From a virus, in IMG/VR virus record IMGVR_UViG_3300010334_000030, positions 77,055-141,054 of that record: a DNA stretch of 64,000 nucleotides; one strand, given 5' to 3'. Positions 29,063 through 62,769 of the stretch are shown piece by piece; position 1 is the stretch's first letter, and each line of letters opens with the position of its first letter. The notes below the pieces were generated by a model, which saw only the letters and a list, made by a program, of their open reading frames with translations, made no database searches and was not told the DNA's origin. Made by a program: the position numbers and the translations under genes.

Positions 29063-29653
29063 TTAAATTTCAGCAGTAAATCCTCTAGGTCTACCAAAAA
29101 CTGAGTCGTCCCTGTTGTACATATCCATGCCGACAACATACTTAAACAGTTTTAGAAATAGCGCAGGTATAAAAACGTCTTTTGTTTTAACTACATCATT
29201 AGAAGGAATAAATAAAAATTCAGACTGCTTCTCATTCTCAGATCCGTCTGTAGTAGCTGTTCCTCTTTTAATTCCTGTAACATTAACAGCAAAACATGGA
29301 TGCTCTGTGTCAACCATCTTTGAAGCAGTAACTGTTCCTAGAAAAAACCATTTGTCATTTTCAGTAACAGAAAAACCAGTTTCCTCCTTTAGCTCTCTTT
29401 TAGCTGTTTCCAAAAATCCTGAATCATCATCATCAGTCCTTCCAGAAACTACGGTTAAAGAATATCCACCTTCCCTAAAATTATTTCTTTCCCTGAGTAC
29501 ACCTATTGATATAGGAAGATTGTTTTCGTCGGTAACATATGGTAATATGATAACAGAATCATCTTTAGGTCTTAATCCAATATATCCATCTCTATCTATT
29601 ACATCAAATCTTGGAGCTGTATAGAGTACTTTTTCTTTTATTGATTCTTGCAT
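29063..29653 (-). CDS. Nudix hydrolase (ADP-ribose pyrophosphatase-like)
   Basis: Nudix box SGRTDDDDSGFLETAKRELKEETGF. Confidence 0.9.
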   Translation of the reverse strand: MQESIKEKVLYTAPRFDVIDRDGYIGLRPKDDSVIILPYVTDENNLPISIGVLRERNNFREGGYSLTVVSGRTDDDDSGFLETAKRELKEETGFSVTENDKWFFLGTVTASKMVDTEHPCFAVNVTGIKRGTATTDGSENEKQSEFLFIPSNDVVKTKDVFIPALFLKLFKYVVGMDMYNRDDSVFGRPRGFTAEI

Positions 29654-29654
29654 T

Positions 29655-30293
29655 TTATTCTTCTACTTCTTTTTGTTCTTTCTCTGAATCCTCATTAATC
29701 TTAGATTTTTTTCCGGAGTCAGAATAATAAGATTTTTTAACAGAATCAGCTAATGATTTTTTTATGTTATTAATATCTATCCCATCTAAGACAAAATCAA
29801 TAATTTCCTTTTCTGCCTCTTCAAAAGATAAAAGAAGAACATTGTATAAATCCTTCGGAGGAAGATTCAATTTTATCTTAATCGAAACCTCAACCATATT
29901 CTTTTTCTGCTTTCTTAACAACTTATATATCGGAGATTCAGGATTGAGATCACCAGTCTCCTCGTAAACTATAGAGGTAACTGCAGACTCTTTTATAATA
30001 TCTCTTTGTTGAATTGGTTGTTCTTTTACTATAGGAGCAGCAGGAAACATTAGCATGTATTCTTCAACTAGATCAATGTTAATTTTTCTCCCACTTTGGA
30101 AGTCAATAAAAATGAAATCACCATTATTTGAAATACCCTTGTATCTTTCTACAGCAGGCACGTTTTCACCCTTTATCCACTCAAAATCATAAGGTGAATA
30201 CTGATCTTGATACTCTTTAATTGTTTTCTGAGGAGATTCCATTTTTTTATTTTTTTTTATTGTCCCAAATAGGGACTTGAATAAGTTCCCCAT
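29655..30293 (-). CDS. Hypothetical protein
   Basis: 212-aa ORF abutting both neighbours. Confidence 0.65.
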   Translation of the reverse strand: MGNLFKSLFGTIKKNKKMESPQKTIKEYQDQYSPYDFEWIKGENVPAVERYKGISNNGDFIFIDFQSGRKINIDLVEEYMLMFPAAPIVKEQPIQQRDIIKESAVTSIVYEETGDLNPESPIYKLLRKQKKNMVEVSIKIKLNLPPKDLYNVLLLSFEEAEKEIIDFVLDGIDINNIKKSLADSVKKSYYSDSGKKSKINEDSEKEQKEVEE

Positions 30294-36930: not shown

Positions 36931-37647
36931 TTATCCGTCATTTTCGTCGTCTTCTGGCTCAAGGTCTGCTGCATTCTCTGGTACTGTTGAAGGAGGAATC
37001 TGTTTCTTTACAGATTTAGCGGTTTCAACCGCAGCGGTAAAAGCAGGAGCTATGTTTTTAATTGTTTGCATATTATCAGCACTGAAAAGCGCTTTTGCTC
37101 CATTCTTCTTTACATCATTAAAAACTTTACCTAAACTTGCCTGAACTACATCAGCAGTCTTTCCCATTTCTGGGTTTGAATCCGATTTAGAAATCAATTT
37201 TGTTATATTAGGATATTTAGCAGCTAGTTTTCCAAGTCCACCCTGGAATTTACCAAGAAAAGCTTTAAGTTTTGGACTAGCATCAGCGGGAATCACTTTT
37301 GATATAATAGGACCAGCTATACTTTTCACCTTAGCTACTACTTCTTTTGCTTTATTAAAAGCTTTTTTCAACCAACCTTTCTCGTTAATATTGTACTCAT
37401 CAGATTCGTCTAACATTTCAAAATCAAATTCATAGTCATCAGATATACCCTCTCTCATACAGATAAGGTCAAATGTACAAATTCCGTGATTTTCTGCCAA
37501 TCTATCAAGATCTGCCAATTCCTGCTCGTTTAGGGAATTGAAGTCTAAATGACTAACGCTTTCTAAAAGCTCGGATTCATCTATTTTATAATATCCTGAG
37601 ATTTCTTTTTCTGAACCGTAGTTCTCAAATGCAACGATGTTTTTCAT
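36931..37647 (-). CDS. Putative ejection protein (paralog 2)
   Basis: Acidic prodomain, then INE-KGWLKKAFNKAKEVVAKVKSIAGP. Confidence 0.6.
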   Translation of the reverse strand: MKNIVAFENYGSEKEISGYYKIDESELLESVSHLDFNSLNEQELADLDRLAENHGICTFDLICMREGISDDYEFDFEMLDESDEYNINEKGWLKKAFNKAKEVVAKVKSIAGPIISKVIPADASPKLKAFLGKFQGGLGKLAAKYPNITKLISKSDSNPEMGKTADVVQASLGKVFNDVKKNGAKALFSADNMQTIKNIAPAFTAAVETAKSVKKQIPPSTVPENAADLEPEDDENDG

Positions 37648-37669
37648 TTTTCTATTTTTATTTTTTTAT

Positions 37670-38398
37670 TTAGGCTGTCGGAATGTCACTAGATGACCAT
37701 GGCTTTGGATCAGTTACGGCCTTAGGTACATTATTCTTTTCACCGTTCTTATTTCCTGTTTCTTTTATATTAAAAACCACCTCTTTTATAGCGGTTTGAA
37801 TGATACCTATGCCCATACTAGAGCGTTTGTTGTCTTCGCTAAAAAGAGAACTTTGTGCTCTAGATTCATTATCTTTTAAAACCTTACCGTAAGTATTCAC
37901 CAAAACATTAACGACATATTTATGCTCCGGAGTTTTATTTGCAATATCGTAAAGTTCTTCCGAAGATTTAGGTCCTTTTGCAAGGGCTTTCTTTAAACCT
38001 TTTATGTACATATCAACAACTTTATTTATTGTTTGTAATGTCTTTGGTGGCATCGGTTCTTTTTTCTTGTCACCATCTATACTTAGACCATCTATTGCTT
38101 TTTTTACATCAGGCTTGATTTTGTTAATTTGTTCATTAACTGTTTTTACTAGCCAACCTGGTGCTGATGATTCATATATTTCATAATCAGAAGAAAAGTT
38201 TTCCGGCTCGTTCATACAAACAACATCAAGTGTGCAAAGATCTGAGGATTCAACCAACATATCTAATTGGTAGAAATCATCCTCGTTTATTTTTTCATAC
38301 CCTCCATTAGACTCGTTTAAATTAAAAGACTTCTTTAGTATTTTCTGCACAGTATTAAAAACTGCATAGTTGTTAAAGGAAAAAAGATTACTGTTCAT
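37670..38398 (-). CDS. Putative ejection protein (paralog 3)
   Basis: Shares LD.L.E...CT.D..CM.E with paralog 2; GATATATA at 38416-38423. Confidence 0.55.
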   Translation of the reverse strand: MNSNLFSFNNYAVFNTVQKILKKSFNLNESNGGYEKINEDDFYQLDMLVESSDLCTLDVVCMNEPENFSSDYEIYESSAPGWLVKTVNEQINKIKPDVKKAIDGLSIDGDKKKEPMPPKTLQTINKVVDMYIKGLKKALAKGPKSSEELYDIANKTPEHKYVVNVLVNTYGKVLKDNESRAQSSLFSEDNKRSSMGIGIIQTAIKEVVFNIKETGNKNGEKNNVPKAVTDPKPWSSSDIPTA

Positions 38399-55097: not shown

Positions 55098-55577
55098 TTA
55101 AAAGTCTTCGTTTTTTATTCTAACGTCATAGTCCATAAATCCTGAAAAATCCTCATCGTCCGCTAATAATCTTCTCTCTGCAGAATCTACATCATTCCTT
55201 GATTCCAGACGGTATTTTAAAATTTCCCTGTCTGGATCTATATAAATAATCAAGCACCTTTTACGGTGCTCTGGCTTTATGTTTTTAATTCCACTGGGGG
55301 TCATTATTAAAAGACTTGATTTTTCAAAATCATCTATAGTTCTACCGTATTTCCATCCATTAAAATCATGGATCTCGTAAAACTTATGGACATTATTTTG
55401 AAAAAAATCATCATCAACAAAATAATAATCAACACCTTGCTTCTCCCCTAATCTTTTTGGTCTACTGGTATAAGAAACACAATATTTAAATCCCTTGGAT
55501 TCAAATTTTTTTCTCATGTAATCTTTACCCGATCCACCTCTTCCGACTAATATAATTTTGCTATTTTTTATTGCCAT
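55098..55577 (-). CDS. gmk: Guanylate kinase-like protein
   Basis: GRGGSGKD; SYTSRPKRLGEKQGVDYYF signature. Confidence 0.88.
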   Translation of the reverse strand: MAIKNSKIILVGRGGSGKDYMRKKFESKGFKYCVSYTSRPKRLGEKQGVDYYFVDDDFFQNNVHKFYEIHDFNGWKYGRTIDDFEKSSLLIMTPSGIKNIKPEHRKRCLIIYIDPDREILKYRLESRNDVDSAERRLLADDEDFSGFMDYDVRIKNEDF

Positions 55578-56556: not shown

Positions 56557-57888
56557 CTAGAAAATTTTAGAAAGATCATCTGCAGAATCCTTATCGTTTC
56601 TTATCTCTATAAATCTAGGTAAAAATAACGATCTGTTGCCGTGTTTATCAGTTATTGCTACATTGTATTGAACAGCTGCAATCTTACCTATTAATGAGTC
56701 GGGATCAGAACTAAGTGATTTAAGATCAGAATCAGTAAACCCTGAACCTATTTTAACGTTTAATGTTTTGGTGGAATCTGTACAAATAAATCCACCAATA
56801 TAACCCTCTCTCTTTCCCTCTCCAGGGTACCATCCAGTAATCTCAAGATCGCAGTCGCTAACCTCTTTAAATTTAACCCATGACTTAGATCTCTTACATT
56901 CATAAACCCCATTGTCTTTACATATTACTCCTTCCCCTCCTAATTTGACTATCTCTTTATAAATTGAAGTAACCTCCGAAGCGTCATTAAGTTCCCATAG
57001 TTGGGCAAGCTTAACCTTGGAAGCTTCTGGAAGATGTTTAATAACATTTTCTAAAGTGTGTCTACGTGTAATATAATCTAAAACACCGTGTCCATTTTCT
57101 AGCGTTATAGCTTCTTCAAAATCAAAAACATTGAAAAGCATTCCACCTTCAATTTTAGAGTCTACTGTTCCCTTAAGTATTTGTGTAACTTTACCACTGA
57201 CAGATTTTCTATTAAGATCTGTTAATTCACCATCAAAAAACCAATCGCCCTTTAGATCGCTACTTTGTATACTCTTTTTTAGATCTTCGGTTATTGTAGG
57301 AAAGCAAGACGAATCTAATTCGTTAAATGCTCTAGTGAAATAAGAAATTTCACCATTTTTATACAAAGCTATCACTCTTACGCCATCATACTTTTCTTCG
57401 CAGTATATCTTCCCCCATTTTTCTATAGTTGAGTGGTCATCAGTAGCAAGCATAAGTGATGGATCTGGAATTAATTCCTTTCCTACCGCTTTATTAATAA
57501 GCTTAGCACCAATCCCAATATTCATTCTCTTAGTTAAAACTTTCATCAGATATTTTCTAAGTTCGATATCCTCTTTATCATCATCAGAAAGTCTACATGA
57601 AATTATTTGCTGAGCTCTATTTCTTAAAGAATCATTAGCTGCTGGTGCTTTTTTTAAATCTTCTACTAAAGACTTAAAATCTTCCCAGAGATTAGGATTT
57701 TTTGAATTTGGTGATTCCTTAAAATTAAGTTTGTGAAGTTTTGTAGTAACGAATGGATTAAAACAAATATCTAGGATATATTCCATTTCTGGACTTAATG
57801 AATCCTTTATGAGGTTTTGTTTTGACTTTTGAGACCCTTCCCCAGTTAAGGACTCAAGTGATTTTAGTGTTTGAATTTCTTTTATCAT
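56557..57888 (-). CDS. ATP-dependent DNA ligase
   Basis: EEKYDGVR, FDGEL, GEGVICK, WVKFK, GSGF, LFLPRF. Confidence 0.95.
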   Translation of the reverse strand: MIKEIQTLKSLESLTGEGSQKSKQNLIKDSLSPEMEYILDICFNPFVTTKLHKLNFKESPNSKNPNLWEDFKSLVEDLKKAPAANDSLRNRAQQIISCRLSDDDKEDIELRKYLMKVLTKRMNIGIGAKLINKAVGKELIPDPSLMLATDDHSTIEKWGKIYCEEKYDGVRVIALYKNGEISYFTRAFNELDSSCFPTITEDLKKSIQSSDLKGDWFFDGELTDLNRKSVSGKVTQILKGTVDSKIEGGMLFNVFDFEEAITLENGHGVLDYITRRHTLENVIKHLPEASKVKLAQLWELNDASEVTSIYKEIVKLGGEGVICKDNGVYECKRSKSWVKFKEVSDCDLEITGWYPGEGKREGYIGGFICTDSTKTLNVKIGSGFTDSDLKSLSSDPDSLIGKIAAVQYNVAITDKHGNRSLFLPRFIEIRNDKDSADDLSKIF

Positions 57889-57947: not shown

Positions 57948-59576
57948 TTATATTGCACCCGCATCCATAGAGGCTAGATCATCTCCGCCTTCTGCGCCTT
58001 CCCCTGCAGCTTCAGCTTGTTTAGCAATCTTCTCAGCTTCTTTCTCGTCTTTCTTTTTATATTTTTCATTAAGTCTAATAAGATCAGGGTTAAGACCTAA
58101 GAATCTTTCGATCAAAAATCCATTATCGAAATAAGGAACCTCTGCCTCACCCATTTTAGTTTTAAGCTCTCCTAACCCAGTAATAAATTCAGTTCTTTTC
58201 TGGTATGTAGCCATCTGAACCTGCTCGTTAAAAGGATTATCCCTATGATATTTCAATCCTAAATTTGTTTTAAAACTTTTATCTTTAGCAAGTTCAGGAT
58301 ACTTTAAACACATTTGTATATACAACGGCTTAACTAATATCTCCTGAAAAATTGATCTTAATCTAGTTAAGAATTTTTCAAATCTAATTTCATCTCTTTC
58401 TAGCCCATCTATACTTACAGAATAGTTAACAGGGGTTGCACCTCTAGAAGCAAATCTAGCATAAGGAATCTTAGAATCCATCTTGAGTTTGTTAAAGAAA
58501 TAGAGAACGTTTTCCATAACGTTAAAATCAGGACCCGATGCATTTAAAGATTCGATAGTTGGAGATTGACCATTCTGTTCAGGAAAAAGATAGTTTTTGT
58601 AAAATTGGATTTTAGGTTTTCCGTTAACTGTCATTTCTCCAGAATTCTCATTAATTGAAATATCCTCCTTATAGTTATTCATTAATTGACCAAGGGTTTG
58701 CATTGCCTTCTGTGGAGATTGACTTCCGGTAGGTATAATGAATTTAAGTCTAAATGAGGCGTTCATAACATTCCAGATAACTCTAGAGTTTTCCATTATT
58801 CTTAGAATATTATAGGATCTCACTAATCTTTCAAGATAGCTTATTCTAGAAATCGAATTACCCTTAGCATAAGAGATGTAAATAATCTGCTCATTTGTAA
58901 GTTTCCTAGTCATCTGTGGGTTTTTTGGATATTGAATCCAAAACTGTTTATATTCACTTTCACTTATCTTCTCCACAGCAGGTTGGAGTGATGTTGGATC
59001 TAATTCTTTAAACCCTATAATCTCCTTACCCTGGTTATCGTAAATTATCTCAAAAGCAAGAAATCCATCCACTAGAAACTGCTTGAAAAATTGCCAAGCA
59101 AGTATAGTGTTTTGGAATCCAAAAACGTTATAAAGTCTATTATAATTATTTGTAATCTCATCTCTCATCTTATCTTTTAGACCATCGAGATTTGCAAAAG
59201 ACGGCGAGGCAAAGAAATTACGCTCGGTATAACTTATACACTCATCAGTTACCGTGTCAAGAATAAATTCAATTTCTCCATTCAAAGAAAACTTTCTTAG
59301 AAAATTTCTTTTCTCAAGATAGTCCTTATCATAATAAGCAATATATTTTCTAACCCTAGTATCTTGATAGGATAAAGTCCAATAAAAAGCATCATTCTCA
59401 GTAAATCCAGTTCCAGATTGATTAAAGAAGGCAGATTCGGTTTTACCAACGGCTTGTGAATTTCTCACCACCATATCATCATACTCCATTCCCAGCTTTG
59501 AGATCTTTCCGAGATTTCGAATAATGTTTCCTAGAGCCGATTGACTCGGTTTAAATCCGTCTAAAAATCCTGCCAT
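57948..59576 (-). CDS. Portal protein (T4 gp20-like), paralog B
   Basis: FLVDG, SYLERL.R.YN.LR.ME...VIW, YF..KL.....IP..R, RDEIRF.KF..RLR..F. Confidence 0.9.
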   Translation of the reverse strand: MAGFLDGFKPSQSALGNIIRNLGKISKLGMEYDDMVVRNSQAVGKTESAFFNQSGTGFTENDAFYWTLSYQDTRVRKYIAYYDKDYLEKRNFLRKFSLNGEIEFILDTVTDECISYTERNFFASPSFANLDGLKDKMRDEITNNYNRLYNVFGFQNTILAWQFFKQFLVDGFLAFEIIYDNQGKEIIGFKELDPTSLQPAVEKISESEYKQFWIQYPKNPQMTRKLTNEQIIYISYAKGNSISRISYLERLVRSYNILRIMENSRVIWNVMNASFRLKFIIPTGSQSPQKAMQTLGQLMNNYKEDISINENSGEMTVNGKPKIQFYKNYLFPEQNGQSPTIESLNASGPDFNVMENVLYFFNKLKMDSKIPYARFASRGATPVNYSVSIDGLERDEIRFEKFLTRLRSIFQEILVKPLYIQMCLKYPELAKDKSFKTNLGLKYHRDNPFNEQVQMATYQKRTEFITGLGELKTKMGEAEVPYFDNGFLIERFLGLNPDLIRLNEKYKKKDEKEAEKIAKQAEAAGEGAEGGDDLASMDAGAI

Positions 59577-59585
59577 TTTTTATTT

Positions 59586-61280
59586 TTATATTACTGAGGT
59601 GTCCTCTGCTCCTGCTTCCGCTTCTCCACCTTCTTCCGCTTCTGCTCCAGCTTCTGCTTCCCCCTCTTCACCTTCCCCACCTTCTTTTCCTTCTTTTTTT
59701 GCTTTTTTATCTTCCTCTTTTTTCTTTTTCTTTGCCTCTTCTTCTTTCTCTTTCTTTTTTCTTTCCACCGCTTCTTTATTAGCTGCTATATCTTGCTGTG
59801 ACATTCCTAGAAAATTTTCAACAAGGAAAGAAACAGAAAAATAAGGCTTTTCTGCATCTTCCATTAGTGCAGACATAGCGGTAATTGATTCTTTTCTTTT
59901 CCCTAGCATTTCAATTTCTTGATTCACTCTAAATGGGCTATCCGAAAAATACTCAAGACCTAGCTGACTCTTAAATGCAAAATCGTCAGCCAGCTTTGGA
60001 TGTTTCTTAACCATCTGGATCCAAAGAGGCTTAATGAGAACCTCCTGAAAAGTTGATCTTAACCTTGATATAAATTTGGAAAATCTTATTTCCTCCTTGT
60101 CTAAGCCTTCCGCTGCATTGACGTATGTAGAAGTATTTCCACCGTCTGGACCGTGAAATCTAGAAGCTGGTATTTTAGACTCCTGAGAAAATTTATCATA
60201 GAAATAATTTAAAGGCGTTGTGTCATTTAAATTTGGTCCATCAATAGTAATAGGTTCAATGGTTGGTGTTCCAGTGCTGCTCTGGGGCATTAAATAATTC
60301 TTATAGAATTGTATTCTCGGTCTTCCATCCATTAAGAGCTCCCCTGTATCATCGTTGAATTGAACATCTTCCTTATAAATACTCATAAGCTCACCTAATG
60401 TCTGCATTCCTTTTTGTTGAGATCTAGTCCCTATAGGAACTGTCATTTTAAGCTTATACGAAGAATTCATAACAGACCAAATAACCCTAGTGTGTTCTAT
60501 AATTCTAAGAATATTATACGGTCTTATTAGTCTTTCAATATAGCTTATTCTTGAGATCGAATTACCCTTTGCATAGGATATGTAAATAATCTGAGGATCA
60601 TAAAGAACTCTTCTTTTTCTAGGGTCTTGTGGAAATTGTGTCCATGTGCTCAGAAAAGTTCCATCAGGCTGTTTCTCTACACTAGGAACTATTGTTATTG
60701 GATCGATCTCTTTAAAACCTATAATCTCTTTACCCTGGTTATCGTAAATTATCTCAAAAGCAAGAAATCCATCAATTAAGAATTGTCTAAAATATTGCCA
60801 TGCAGTTATATCGTCATTAAATCCCCAGATCTCATATATTCTTTTATATGAATCATAAAGATCCTCTTTTAATTTTTCATTAATATCTGTCAAATCTATT
60901 AAATCAGGATATGCGAAATAATTAAAAGGATCATATGTTACTGACTCGTCACAAAGAATATCTAAAACCCATTCAACCTCAGGATTAAGCGAGAATTTTC
61001 TAAGATAGTCTCTTTTTCCTTTATAATCCTTATCAAAGTAAGATACAAACTGTTTTGTTGAAATATCCTGTTTAGCTAAGGTCCATAACATACCTTCGTC
61101 TTCAACGTTTGACTTATTCTTATTAAGGAAAGAAGCCTCCGTTGCACCCACCGCCTGAGAGTTTCTGATAACCATGTCATCATACTTCATCCCAAAGGTG
61201 CTAAGCTTTTTTAGGGAATCCCTTATTCTTTGAATAACCGGGGATTGTGAAGGTCCGCTATTGTCTGTAAAACCAGCCAT
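59586..61280 (-). CDS. Portal protein (T4 gp20-like), paralog A
   Basis: Same motifs as paralog B; longer K/E/G/A tail; GATATATA at 61339-61346. Confidence 0.9.
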   Translation of the reverse strand: MAGFTDNSGPSQSPVIQRIRDSLKKLSTFGMKYDDMVIRNSQAVGATEASFLNKNKSNVEDEGMLWTLAKQDISTKQFVSYFDKDYKGKRDYLRKFSLNPEVEWVLDILCDESVTYDPFNYFAYPDLIDLTDINEKLKEDLYDSYKRIYEIWGFNDDITAWQYFRQFLIDGFLAFEIIYDNQGKEIIGFKEIDPITIVPSVEKQPDGTFLSTWTQFPQDPRKRRVLYDPQIIYISYAKGNSISRISYIERLIRPYNILRIIEHTRVIWSVMNSSYKLKMTVPIGTRSQQKGMQTLGELMSIYKEDVQFNDDTGELLMDGRPRIQFYKNYLMPQSSTGTPTIEPITIDGPNLNDTTPLNYFYDKFSQESKIPASRFHGPDGGNTSTYVNAAEGLDKEEIRFSKFISRLRSTFQEVLIKPLWIQMVKKHPKLADDFAFKSQLGLEYFSDSPFRVNQEIEMLGKRKESITAMSALMEDAEKPYFSVSFLVENFLGMSQQDIAANKEAVERKKKEKEEEAKKKKKEEDKKAKKEGKEGGEGEEGEAEAGAEAEEGGEAEAGAEDTSVI

Positions 61281-61312: not shown

Positions 61313-61921
61313 TTAAATTAATTTCGATTCATACTCTTTATATATCCCCTGCGTTTGCAAGCCCTCTATCATAGAGAATCTAAGGTAGGGAAGCTTAAAC
61401 CAGTCTTCTAAATCAACAATTTTAATTTTTTGTATAAAATTAGCTTTAAATCCAAAAACTGATCCATTATACCCTGTTCCTGCCATAAATCTTTCTAGGA
61501 AGCTTGTATTTAAAGGAAGTGGTTCTATATTTCCACCTTTAGAGTACGCATCATAGTTTTTGGTTATAATATTATTGAAGTTATCAAAAACCTTTGAAAT
61601 GATCTCTATTTTACGTAAAGGCGGAACTGTTATGAGATCAATACCTTTTAAAATGATTCCGTCTTTTTTACTTTTATATGAATCTAAGCAAAGAACTATA
61701 GGATTTCTATTGATGAATTTTCTTTTTTCATTTACCTTTGAATCGGTAGCGTAATAAAATGAATAGATCTGACCAGGGATAAAGGGCGGGAAAAACTTTT
61801 TGTTAGCTTTCTCATCTCCGAAATACTTATCCTCGAATAGTTTATCAGTATTAGAAACTAGATCTTGAGTGTTTTTAAAACTATTTTTATACTCTAAAAC
61901 TGACTCTGAATATTTTTTCAT
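61313..61921 (-). CDS. DNA end protector protein (gp2-like)
   Basis: PGQIYSF.Y....K...R.P.V....GIDL..VP pattern; adjacent to gp4. Confidence 0.65.
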   Translation of the reverse strand: MKKYSESVLEYKNSFKNTQDLVSNTDKLFEDKYFGDEKANKKFFPPFIPGQIYSFYYATDSKVNEKRKFINRNPIVLCLDSYKSKKDGIILKGIDLITVPPLRKIEIISKVFDNFNNIITKNYDAYSKGGNIEPLPLNTSFLERFMAGTGYNGSVFGFKANFIQKIKIVDLEDWFKLPYLRFSMIEGLQTQGIYKEYESKLI

Positions 61922-62403
61922 CTGCTTTTAAATAAAAAATTCTCATCGATAACTCCAAATTTAAAGCCTCTCCTTTCTGCCCACTCTTTTGCAGCTTTGA
62001 ATTTAGCCTGATTTGTTATCCAAATTTGCATATTTCTGTTATACGATTTTAACTTAGTTAGGGTCATATTTCCTTCGTATATGGGCTTCTGTGTTTGTCT
62101 TTCTGGTTTTATCTCTATTATCCACTCTTTCTCTTCCCCATCCTCACTTAAAACCTTTATGTAGAAATCAACATTATATTTGTGATCCTTCTTATCTAGC
62201 GGGTTGTAATAATCTATTGCCATTGGCTCAGATGACCACTTTAATATAGATTCATTAGTGTCACAATAGGTACAGAACCTATATTCCCATGAAGATCTGT
62301 AGATTATATTATGGATATCGCCAATATACTTATCTGGGTTCATAGGAGCATATAATCCAGATTTATATTCGCCGTTAGGTTTTACCTTTTTAATATCAGT
62401 CAT
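61918..62403 (-). CDS. Head completion nuclease (gp4-like, TnsA-type)
   Basis: P.NPDKY.GD...I.YRSSWE, WSSEP, Y.VDF, EIKP, NQAK..AA. Confidence 0.92.
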   Translation of the reverse strand: MTDIKKVKPNGEYKSGLYAPMNPDKYIGDIHNIIYRSSWEYRFCTYCDTNESILKWSSEPMAIDYYNPLDKKDHKYNVDFYIKVLSEDGEEKEWIIEIKPERQTQKPIYEGNMTLTKLKSYNRNMQIWITNQAKFKAAKEWAERRGFKFGVIDENFLFKSR

Positions 62404-62409
62404 AATTTA

Positions 62410-62769
62410 TTAGATATTATAAGTGTTATCATCACCAGTGATATGGCTAAAAGGTATAGTCTTTGGGCTTTTAGGTGGGTGAAGCTTTTTCCAGCCTTTA
62501 GCAAAGCCGTTCTTAGCTATTTGTGTGAAGTATGCAAAGGGGTTATTTGATTTACTTGGATCAAATCTATCCCAATATTTACAAAGATCCTCCATGGCAA
62601 AAGCCATACAATCTTCTTTATCCTCTACATCTTTATATGCCATTTTTTTAGATATACCGTGTATCATAAGGGTAAACATATCTATTGTATCCGGGGTTAA
62701 TCTTCCGTTCTTTTTTGACTCGACAACTGCTATCATTAAGTCACTGTTTTTTACATAATCTTTGGCCAT
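62410..62769 (-). CDS. Late-transcription sigma factor (gp55-like)
   Basis: YVKN..L, FDP.KS.NPFAYFTQI..N.F. Confidence 0.88.
   Translation of the reverse strand: MAKDYVKNSDLMIAVVESKKNGRLTPDTIDMFTLMIHGISKKMAYKDVEDKEDCMAFAMEDLCKYWDRFDPSKSNNPFAYFTQIAKNGFAKGWKKLHPPKSPKTIPFSHITGDDNTYNI

Follow-up and report, generated by a model that had tools for sequence, protein, structure and literature searches.

The window analysed here is a stretch of 64,000 nucleotides (nt), the final 64 kilobases (kb) of a 141-kb viral contig from IMG/VR (IMGVR_UViG_3300010334_000030; CheckV completeness ~51%). Two genes for portal proteins of the T4 gp20 type, designated A and B, lie in tandem on its minus strand (Table 1). 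A first-pass annotation of the window had described two full-length gp20-like open reading frames (ORFs) of 564 and 542 amino acids (aa), 9 nt apart, that both start with MAGF and are clearly diverged outside shared identical blocks. The frames, the spacer, the MAGF N-terminus of both proteins and the family matches given below confirm this description. The junction between the stop codon of A and the start codon of B reads TAA-AAATAAAAA-ATG, and the spacer is too short for a separate promoter. A and B can be aligned end to end and are 50% identical over 505 aa (BLASTP), in keeping with the divergence described.

Both proteins are matched by the Portal_T4 family model PF07230, for which the curated cut-off is 22.9 bits. 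The E values are 3.3e-59 (201.2 bits) for A and 1e-66 (225.9 bits) for B, and the corresponding values for the portal protein family phrog_213 are 4e-60 and 5e-64. Exactly two Portal_T4 matches, A and B, are found in the whole contig. Structures were predicted with AlphaFold2 using an alignment of 116 sequences. The model of A has a predicted local distance difference test score (pLDDT) of 85.6 and a predicted template modelling score (pTM) of 0.80; the values for B are 85.9 and 0.81. The order of helices and strands is identical in the two models. The top Foldseek matches of both in the PDB are structures of T4 gp20 (9MKB, 6UZC, 9LU7 and 3JA7), with E values of about 1e-21 to 1e-15 and target-normalised template modelling scores of 0.55–0.71. 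A portal fold with clip, stem, wing and crown is predicted for A and for B, and by family model and predicted fold both are assigned as T4-type portal proteins.

The C-termini of A (59586-59750) and B (57948-58050) consist of low-complexity Lys/Glu sequence followed by acidic Gly/Glu/Ala tails, all modelled with pLDDT <50. The length of the acidic tail differs among orthologues; A has 564 aa here and 531–559 aa in relatives.

Table 1. Location of the portal genes, the shared tract, the neighbouring genes and the tail-tube pairs of two complete related genomes (G002 and G003).
Feature	Location	Strand	Description
Portal A	59586..61280	(-)	564 aa, T4 gp20-type, first of pair
Portal B	57948..59576	(-)	542 aa, T4 gp20-type, second of pair
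A/B spacer	59577..59585	(-)	A stop to B start
44-nt tract in A	60730..60773	(-)	identical to 59026-59069 of B; wing beta-sheet block DGFLAFEIIYDNQGK
44-nt partner tract in B	59026..59069	(-)	identical to 60730-60773 of A
202-aa gene	61313..61921	(-)	directly upstream of A; probable gp2-like DNA end protector, from position only
gp4-like head-completion (head closure) nuclease	61918..62403	(-)	phrog_218, E 3.9e-47; PF08722, E 9e-19
gp55-like late sigma factor	62410..62769	(-)	phrog_234, E 1.2e-16; PF04542
Tail-tube pair, G003	G003:C1:22523-23666 (L187:2523-3666)		phrog_32623, E 3e-37 and 8e-32; tail-tube families phrog_45 and phrog_3629
Tail-tube pair, G002	G002:C1:258504-259645		two tandem copies

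Conservation and origin of the portal pair

The survey of related phages that the first-pass annotation had proposed was carried out in IMG/VR. With A as the query, 226 relatives were obtained and the best 80 were kept. A is followed by B in 78 of these 80 contigs, and the remaining two stop right after A. The A orthologues of the 80 contigs are 61–88% identical to the query; the B orthologues, at 64–92% identity, always lie downstream of A. With B as the query, A was located directly upstream in 22 of 22 B orthologues, and 58 loci of more distant lineages (44–47% identity, one portal each) were also recovered. A-then-B is carried by ~85 related viral contigs, and loss of either copy was seen in no contig long enough to show the pair. 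Exactly two Portal_T4 matches, in tandem, are also present in each of two complete genomes with direct terminal repeats (CheckV 100%), G002 and G003, one of which is 430 kb and the other 373 kb. An assembly chimera, which the first-pass annotation had considered, or a chance arrangement is ruled out by the presence of the pair in many independent metagenome assemblies and in these two genomes closed by terminal repeats.

The reading frames are intact in all 79 complete A genes and all 70 complete B genes. In 58 distinct related loci, A and B are on the same strand with a spacer of 1–22 nt, which leaves no room for separate control. The two genes therefore appear to form one transcription unit, and they would be co-expressed from the one transcript that this arrangement implies.

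Portal A is matched in 2,168 GenBank phage records, and a second match place is present only in LR756501 and LR756503, which are listed with identical length and coordinates. LR756501, a 735-kb phage, has one full portal and a separate open frame of 101 aa (L096; LR756501.1:15166-15351). Its match to the Portal_T4 model is confined to the final stretch of the model (positions 374–431).

In the maximum-likelihood tree, the A clade and the B clade are each supported at 100 and their union at 99 (Shimodaira–Hasegawa-like approximate likelihood ratio test). The sister of A plus B is a single-copy clade related to LR756500. The tree was extended with 43 representatives from a library of 1.8 billion proteins, and A plus B then formed a clade with lineage P0003 at 100% support. 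The P0003 portal is 48% identical to A, and an ORF with the N-terminus MAGFLD...GMEYDD begins 9 nt after it. This second ORF has a B-type N-terminus and is cut by the end of the contig (locus L102). Because P0003 also carries the pair, the pair is older than the clade of 61–92% identity. P0004 has a single portal, and its gene order (sigma factor, gp4, gp2, portal, clamp loader) is that of the window without B. P0007 and P0008 also have one portal each, and the whole records of LR756500 (462 kb) and G001 contain one portal match apiece. The pair thus descends from one old tandem duplication, with a single portal in every sister lineage examined.

Selection and divergence between the copies

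The ratio of nonsynonymous to synonymous substitution rates (dN/dS, omega), a check that the first-pass annotation had called for, was calculated by the Nei-Gojobori method over pairs of related genomes (91 for A, 82 for B). The median omega values of A and B are 0.016 and 0.017, respectively; because most of the genome pairs have saturated dS, only close pairs are informative, and omega is 0.003–0.03 in those with unsaturated dS. Within each genome pair, dN is nearly equal for A and B. By these estimates, purifying selection is strong and acts equally on A and B. The two median values rule out relaxed selection on either of them, an outcome that the first-pass annotation had named as one that would refute its reading.

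The divergence is also symmetric. There are 28 fixed differences between the two proteins; A carries the derived state at 12 of them and B at 7, and the polarity of 9 is unassigned. There are 28 sites constrained only in A and 30 constrained only in B. Single-copy relatives are as close to A (mean identity 0.423) as to B (0.425); at this equal distance, the original copy cannot be picked out.

The domain limits of T4 gp20 (PMC4493910) were transferred to A and B through a HMMER alignment and the secondary structure of the models. Mean amino acid identities within A, within B, and between A and B of the same genome are 0.94, 0.93, and 0.75 for stem helix α5 and 0.85, 0.83, and 0.60 for the clip. 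The values are 0.80, 0.87, and 0.37 for the channel loop with stem helix α7 and 0.73, 0.72, and 0.28 for the tunnel loop. By this measure, no domain is relaxed in either protein. The stem-clip-tunnel module is enriched in fixed A/B differences, which occupy 18 of its 80 conserved sites compared with 10 of 116 outside it (Fisher p 0.012). The equivalent regions of the T4 portal bind both terminase and the neck protein gp13 and form the lining of the DNA channel (PMC4493910, PMC12929587). Terminase and neck dock at the T4 clip, where a beta-sheet is formed jointly by adjacent subunits, and the tunnel loops contact those of the adjacent subunits (PMC4493910). With clip and channel loops constrained in both copies, A and B look like working channel-forming portal subunits, and they look specialised at the channel and docking end.

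The identical blocks shared by A and B lie in the wing beta-sheet (A residues about 170–191) and just before stem helix α5 (residues 229–246). The same motifs appear in the consensus of the 116 diverse relatives, single-copy ones included, and the blocks are for the most part the most conserved core of the family. The earlier observation of the blocks is correct; being family-wide, they are not peculiar to A and B. One of them contains a 44-nt tract identical in the two genes (Table 1). Across 1,122 cross-genome comparisons, the longest exact A/B match has 30 nt, and across the 33 other same-genome comparisons it has 29 nt. The 44-nt tract is probably the product of a recent, short gene conversion in the lineage of the window. 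The A/B nucleotide identity of the same genome exceeds that across genomes by <=0.023 in any window of 20 codons. Clade-wide concerted evolution as the source of the blocks is ruled out by this small excess and by the blocks in the consensus of the relatives.

Tail-tube pairs and neighbouring genes

A second duplicated structural gene was detected in the complete relative G003 by an all-against-all BLAST search. Two tandem genes of 184 and 191 aa, 56% identical, lie ~13 kb upstream of the portal pair and match tail-tube families (Table 1). The tube paralogues are 56–61% identical in the complete relatives. The pair is present in 80 of 80 related tube loci of IMG/VR, and at least 25 contigs with the tube pair are also among the contigs with the portal pair. 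One tube gene is present in each of the single-portal records LR756500, G001 and LR756501. The tube pair was found via BLAST and PHROG; PF06841 (T4 tail tube) and PF04984 (sheath) have no match in these genomes. Two adjacent candidates in the window (29063-29653 and 29655-30293) were dropped as a tube pair because they are unrelated to each other.

The genes upstream of A are those of a T4-like head and packaging region (Table 1). The 202-aa protein has no Pfam or PHROG match, and the gene at the same position in the relatives L102, L103 and L104 matches PF26869 (Phage_T4_gp2). The order sigma factor, gp4, gp2, portal is common to the window, L102 and L104. A gp23-like capsid (major head protein) gene and a prohead protease gene are located elsewhere in the window. 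The setting of A and B is therefore read as the head and packaging genes of a tailed phage, with a gp2-like neighbour by synteny. No obvious Shine-Dalgarno sequence precedes A or B.

Portal B and the clamp loader are separated by genes for DNA ligase and guanylate kinase (56557-57888 and 55098-55577, respectively); L104, a relative with one portal, has the clamp loader straight after it. Other tandem paralogues were also noted. Two proteins of 238 and 242 aa, encoded at 36931-38398 of the window, are 26% identical and have no PHROG match. Outside the window, three tandem paralogues of ~590 aa (G000:C1:59318-64688; L185:319-5689) are 31–34% identical, have weak tail-fibre PHROG matches at their N-termini and adjoin a gene of 1,934 aa. 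A similar tail-fibre-like tandem pair is located at 108385-111639 of G003. For the related Lak phages and the largest "Mahaphage" genomes, hosts among the Bacteroidetes are predicted (PMC7162821), and a host among the Bacteroidota may be inferred for the phage of the window.

Readings of the pair and comparison with known systems

The preferred reading, given a probability of roughly 0.45, is a mixed portal ring built from A and B. The portal gene was duplicated in tandem in the ancestor of an uncultured clade of giant phages, and both copies were then fixed. A and B would be transcribed together and probably made in similar amounts, and the one portal ring, at the special vertex of the capsid, would contain both of them as a mixed dodecamer, for example an alternating A6B6. 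Along the DNA channel of such a ring, the clip, channel-loop and tunnel-loop surfaces of A would alternate with those of B, and the symmetry would be six-fold instead of twelve-fold. In T4, the 12-to-6 step occurs on passing from the gp13 dodecamer to the gp14 hexamer (PMC12929587); an A6B6 portal might, as a speculation, shift this step into the portal itself. Because neither copy is lost and both keep a constrained clip and channel, a mixed ring would be the simplest account. It is partly supported by the two genes being apparently co-transcribed and always together, by the symmetric divergence and by the constrained channel loops of both proteins. The first-pass annotation had offered a heteromeric 6+6 portal or two vertices specialised for packaging and ejection; the former fits the retention, equal selection and symmetric divergence described above, and the latter found no support. 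In an extended form of the mixed-ring proposal, an obligate A/B hetero-dodecamer (for example A6B6) would be paired with a tail tube of two paralogues, and the lower symmetry of the whole DNA conduit would be encoded in genes and not reached by conformational switching. This form is put forward tentatively, at somewhat less than even odds.

Several points weigh against a mixed ring. The presence of both proteins in the virion and their co-assembly in one ring are presumed from the genes. The GenBank phage collection contains no cultured member of the clade, and all matches there are <60% identical. The tube pair is known from relatives, the contig of the window ending before that locus. The portal and tube duplications are each one event in one clade, and their co-occurrence, which is suggestive only, may be a coincidence. 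The sequence data would also fit two separate homo-oligomeric rings equally well. In that case, one ring would be the true vertex portal and the other a second portal-like ring with a different task, for example stacked inside the portal as an anchor of a core or inner body for a very large genome or used for prohead initiation only. Every domain is equally constrained in both copies, as a self-assembling ring would need; the paralogue-specific channel and tunnel loops could mean two different channels; and recombinant T4 gp20 forms rings alone (PMC12929587), so that each paralogue plausibly could. Yet a ring that touches neither terminase nor neck should lose the constraint on its clip, where identity is high within A and within B alike, and conservation is also equal in the N-terminus and the wing, the regions of the T4 portal in contact with the capsid. 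A stacked second portal ring was not found in the literature and the solved-structure matches searched. On balance, separate rings are considered less probable than a mixed ring but a serious rival to it.

Interchangeable portals, either of which would suffice alone, might serve as a hedge against host defences that sense the portal or be suited to different hosts. Both genes are complete and several of the fixed differences fall in exposed loops, as this explanation would have it. Redundant copies are, however, normally lost or decay, and no loss is seen in the ~85 contigs, with omega very low and equal. The short spacer allows no separate regulation, so that both proteins would be present at once and a sensor would still find its target. 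Surfaces shaped by defence should vary among genomes, but the loops specific to A are conserved among A orthologues and those specific to B among B orthologues. Interchangeable portals are accordingly judged improbable. A decaying or non-functional copy, or an artefact of assembly, is favoured only by the prior expectation of one portal gene per phage; it is set against 79 A and 70 B complete and intact copies, an omega of ~0.02 and many independent assemblies, and hardly any weight is given to it. A mixed A/B ring is thus retained as the preferred reading in the comparisons that follow.

In descriptions of tailed phages and herpesviruses, the portal is a ring made of a single protein in twelve copies. 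Much of the current structural work is concerned with how subunits that are all alike handle the 12-to-5 mismatch with capsid and motor and the 12-to-6 mismatch with the neck. If a mixed ring is formed, it would be, to our knowledge, the first portal of a tailed phage or herpesvirus to be made from the products of two genes. Full-text literature searches returned no paper describing phage portals that are duplicated, paralogous or hetero-oligomeric. Duplicated portals are not mentioned in a survey of huge phages (PMC7162821) or in a comparison covering 224 jumbo phages (PMC7824862). The clade would offer a natural test of whether the symmetry problems of the portal can be solved genetically. 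Pipelines for counting, completeness or phylogeny that use the portal as a single-copy marker would count this clade twice or mix the paralogues.

The system resembles T4 in the family model, in the predicted layout of clip, stem, wing and crown and in the best structural match of both proteins, which is T4 gp20 (known structures 3JA7, 6UZC, 9MKB and 9LU6/9LU7). The context is also T4-like: upstream of A lie genes for a late sigma factor and a gp4-like nuclease as well as a gp2-like gene. Unlike T4, in which a single portal gene supplies all twelve, identical subunits of the ring, the window has two genes that are 50% identical, and A and B differ from T4 gp20 in having paralogue-specific channel, tunnel and clip residues. 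A canonical homo-dodecameric portal goes with one portal gene per genome; the window contig, G002 and G003 depart from this. The single-copy portals of other giant phages (LR756500 of the Al-Shayeb et al. 2020 set, the Lak phages and the P0004 lineage) are 44–48% identical to A and B. These phages share the neighbour order sigma factor, gp4, gp2, portal, clamp loader and differ in having one portal gene and, where the whole record could be searched, one tail-tube gene.

The pair can further be compared with assemblies in which a duplicated gene was retained. A precedent within T4 is the duplicated structural gene for gp23 (major capsid protein) and gp24 (vertex protein), both of which are kept in one assembly. 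The likeness to A and B is one of analogy; gp23 and gp24 form hexamers and vertex pentamers and are not subunits of one ring. A further analogy is with cellular rings that became hetero-oligomeric via gene duplication, namely the proteolipid ring of the V-ATPase (Vma3, Vma11 and Vma16), the rings of the proteasome, CCT and MCM2-7. The same route is proposed here, by analogy only: duplication of the subunit of a homo-oligomeric ring, symmetric divergence and obligatory retention of both copies. The cellular hetero-rings were shown biochemically, whereas the co-assembly of A and B is deduced from genes. As in those rings, both paralogues are kept in all descendants under purifying selection, and, if the mixed ring is correct, A and B would be a viral example of a ring that gained complexity by duplication.

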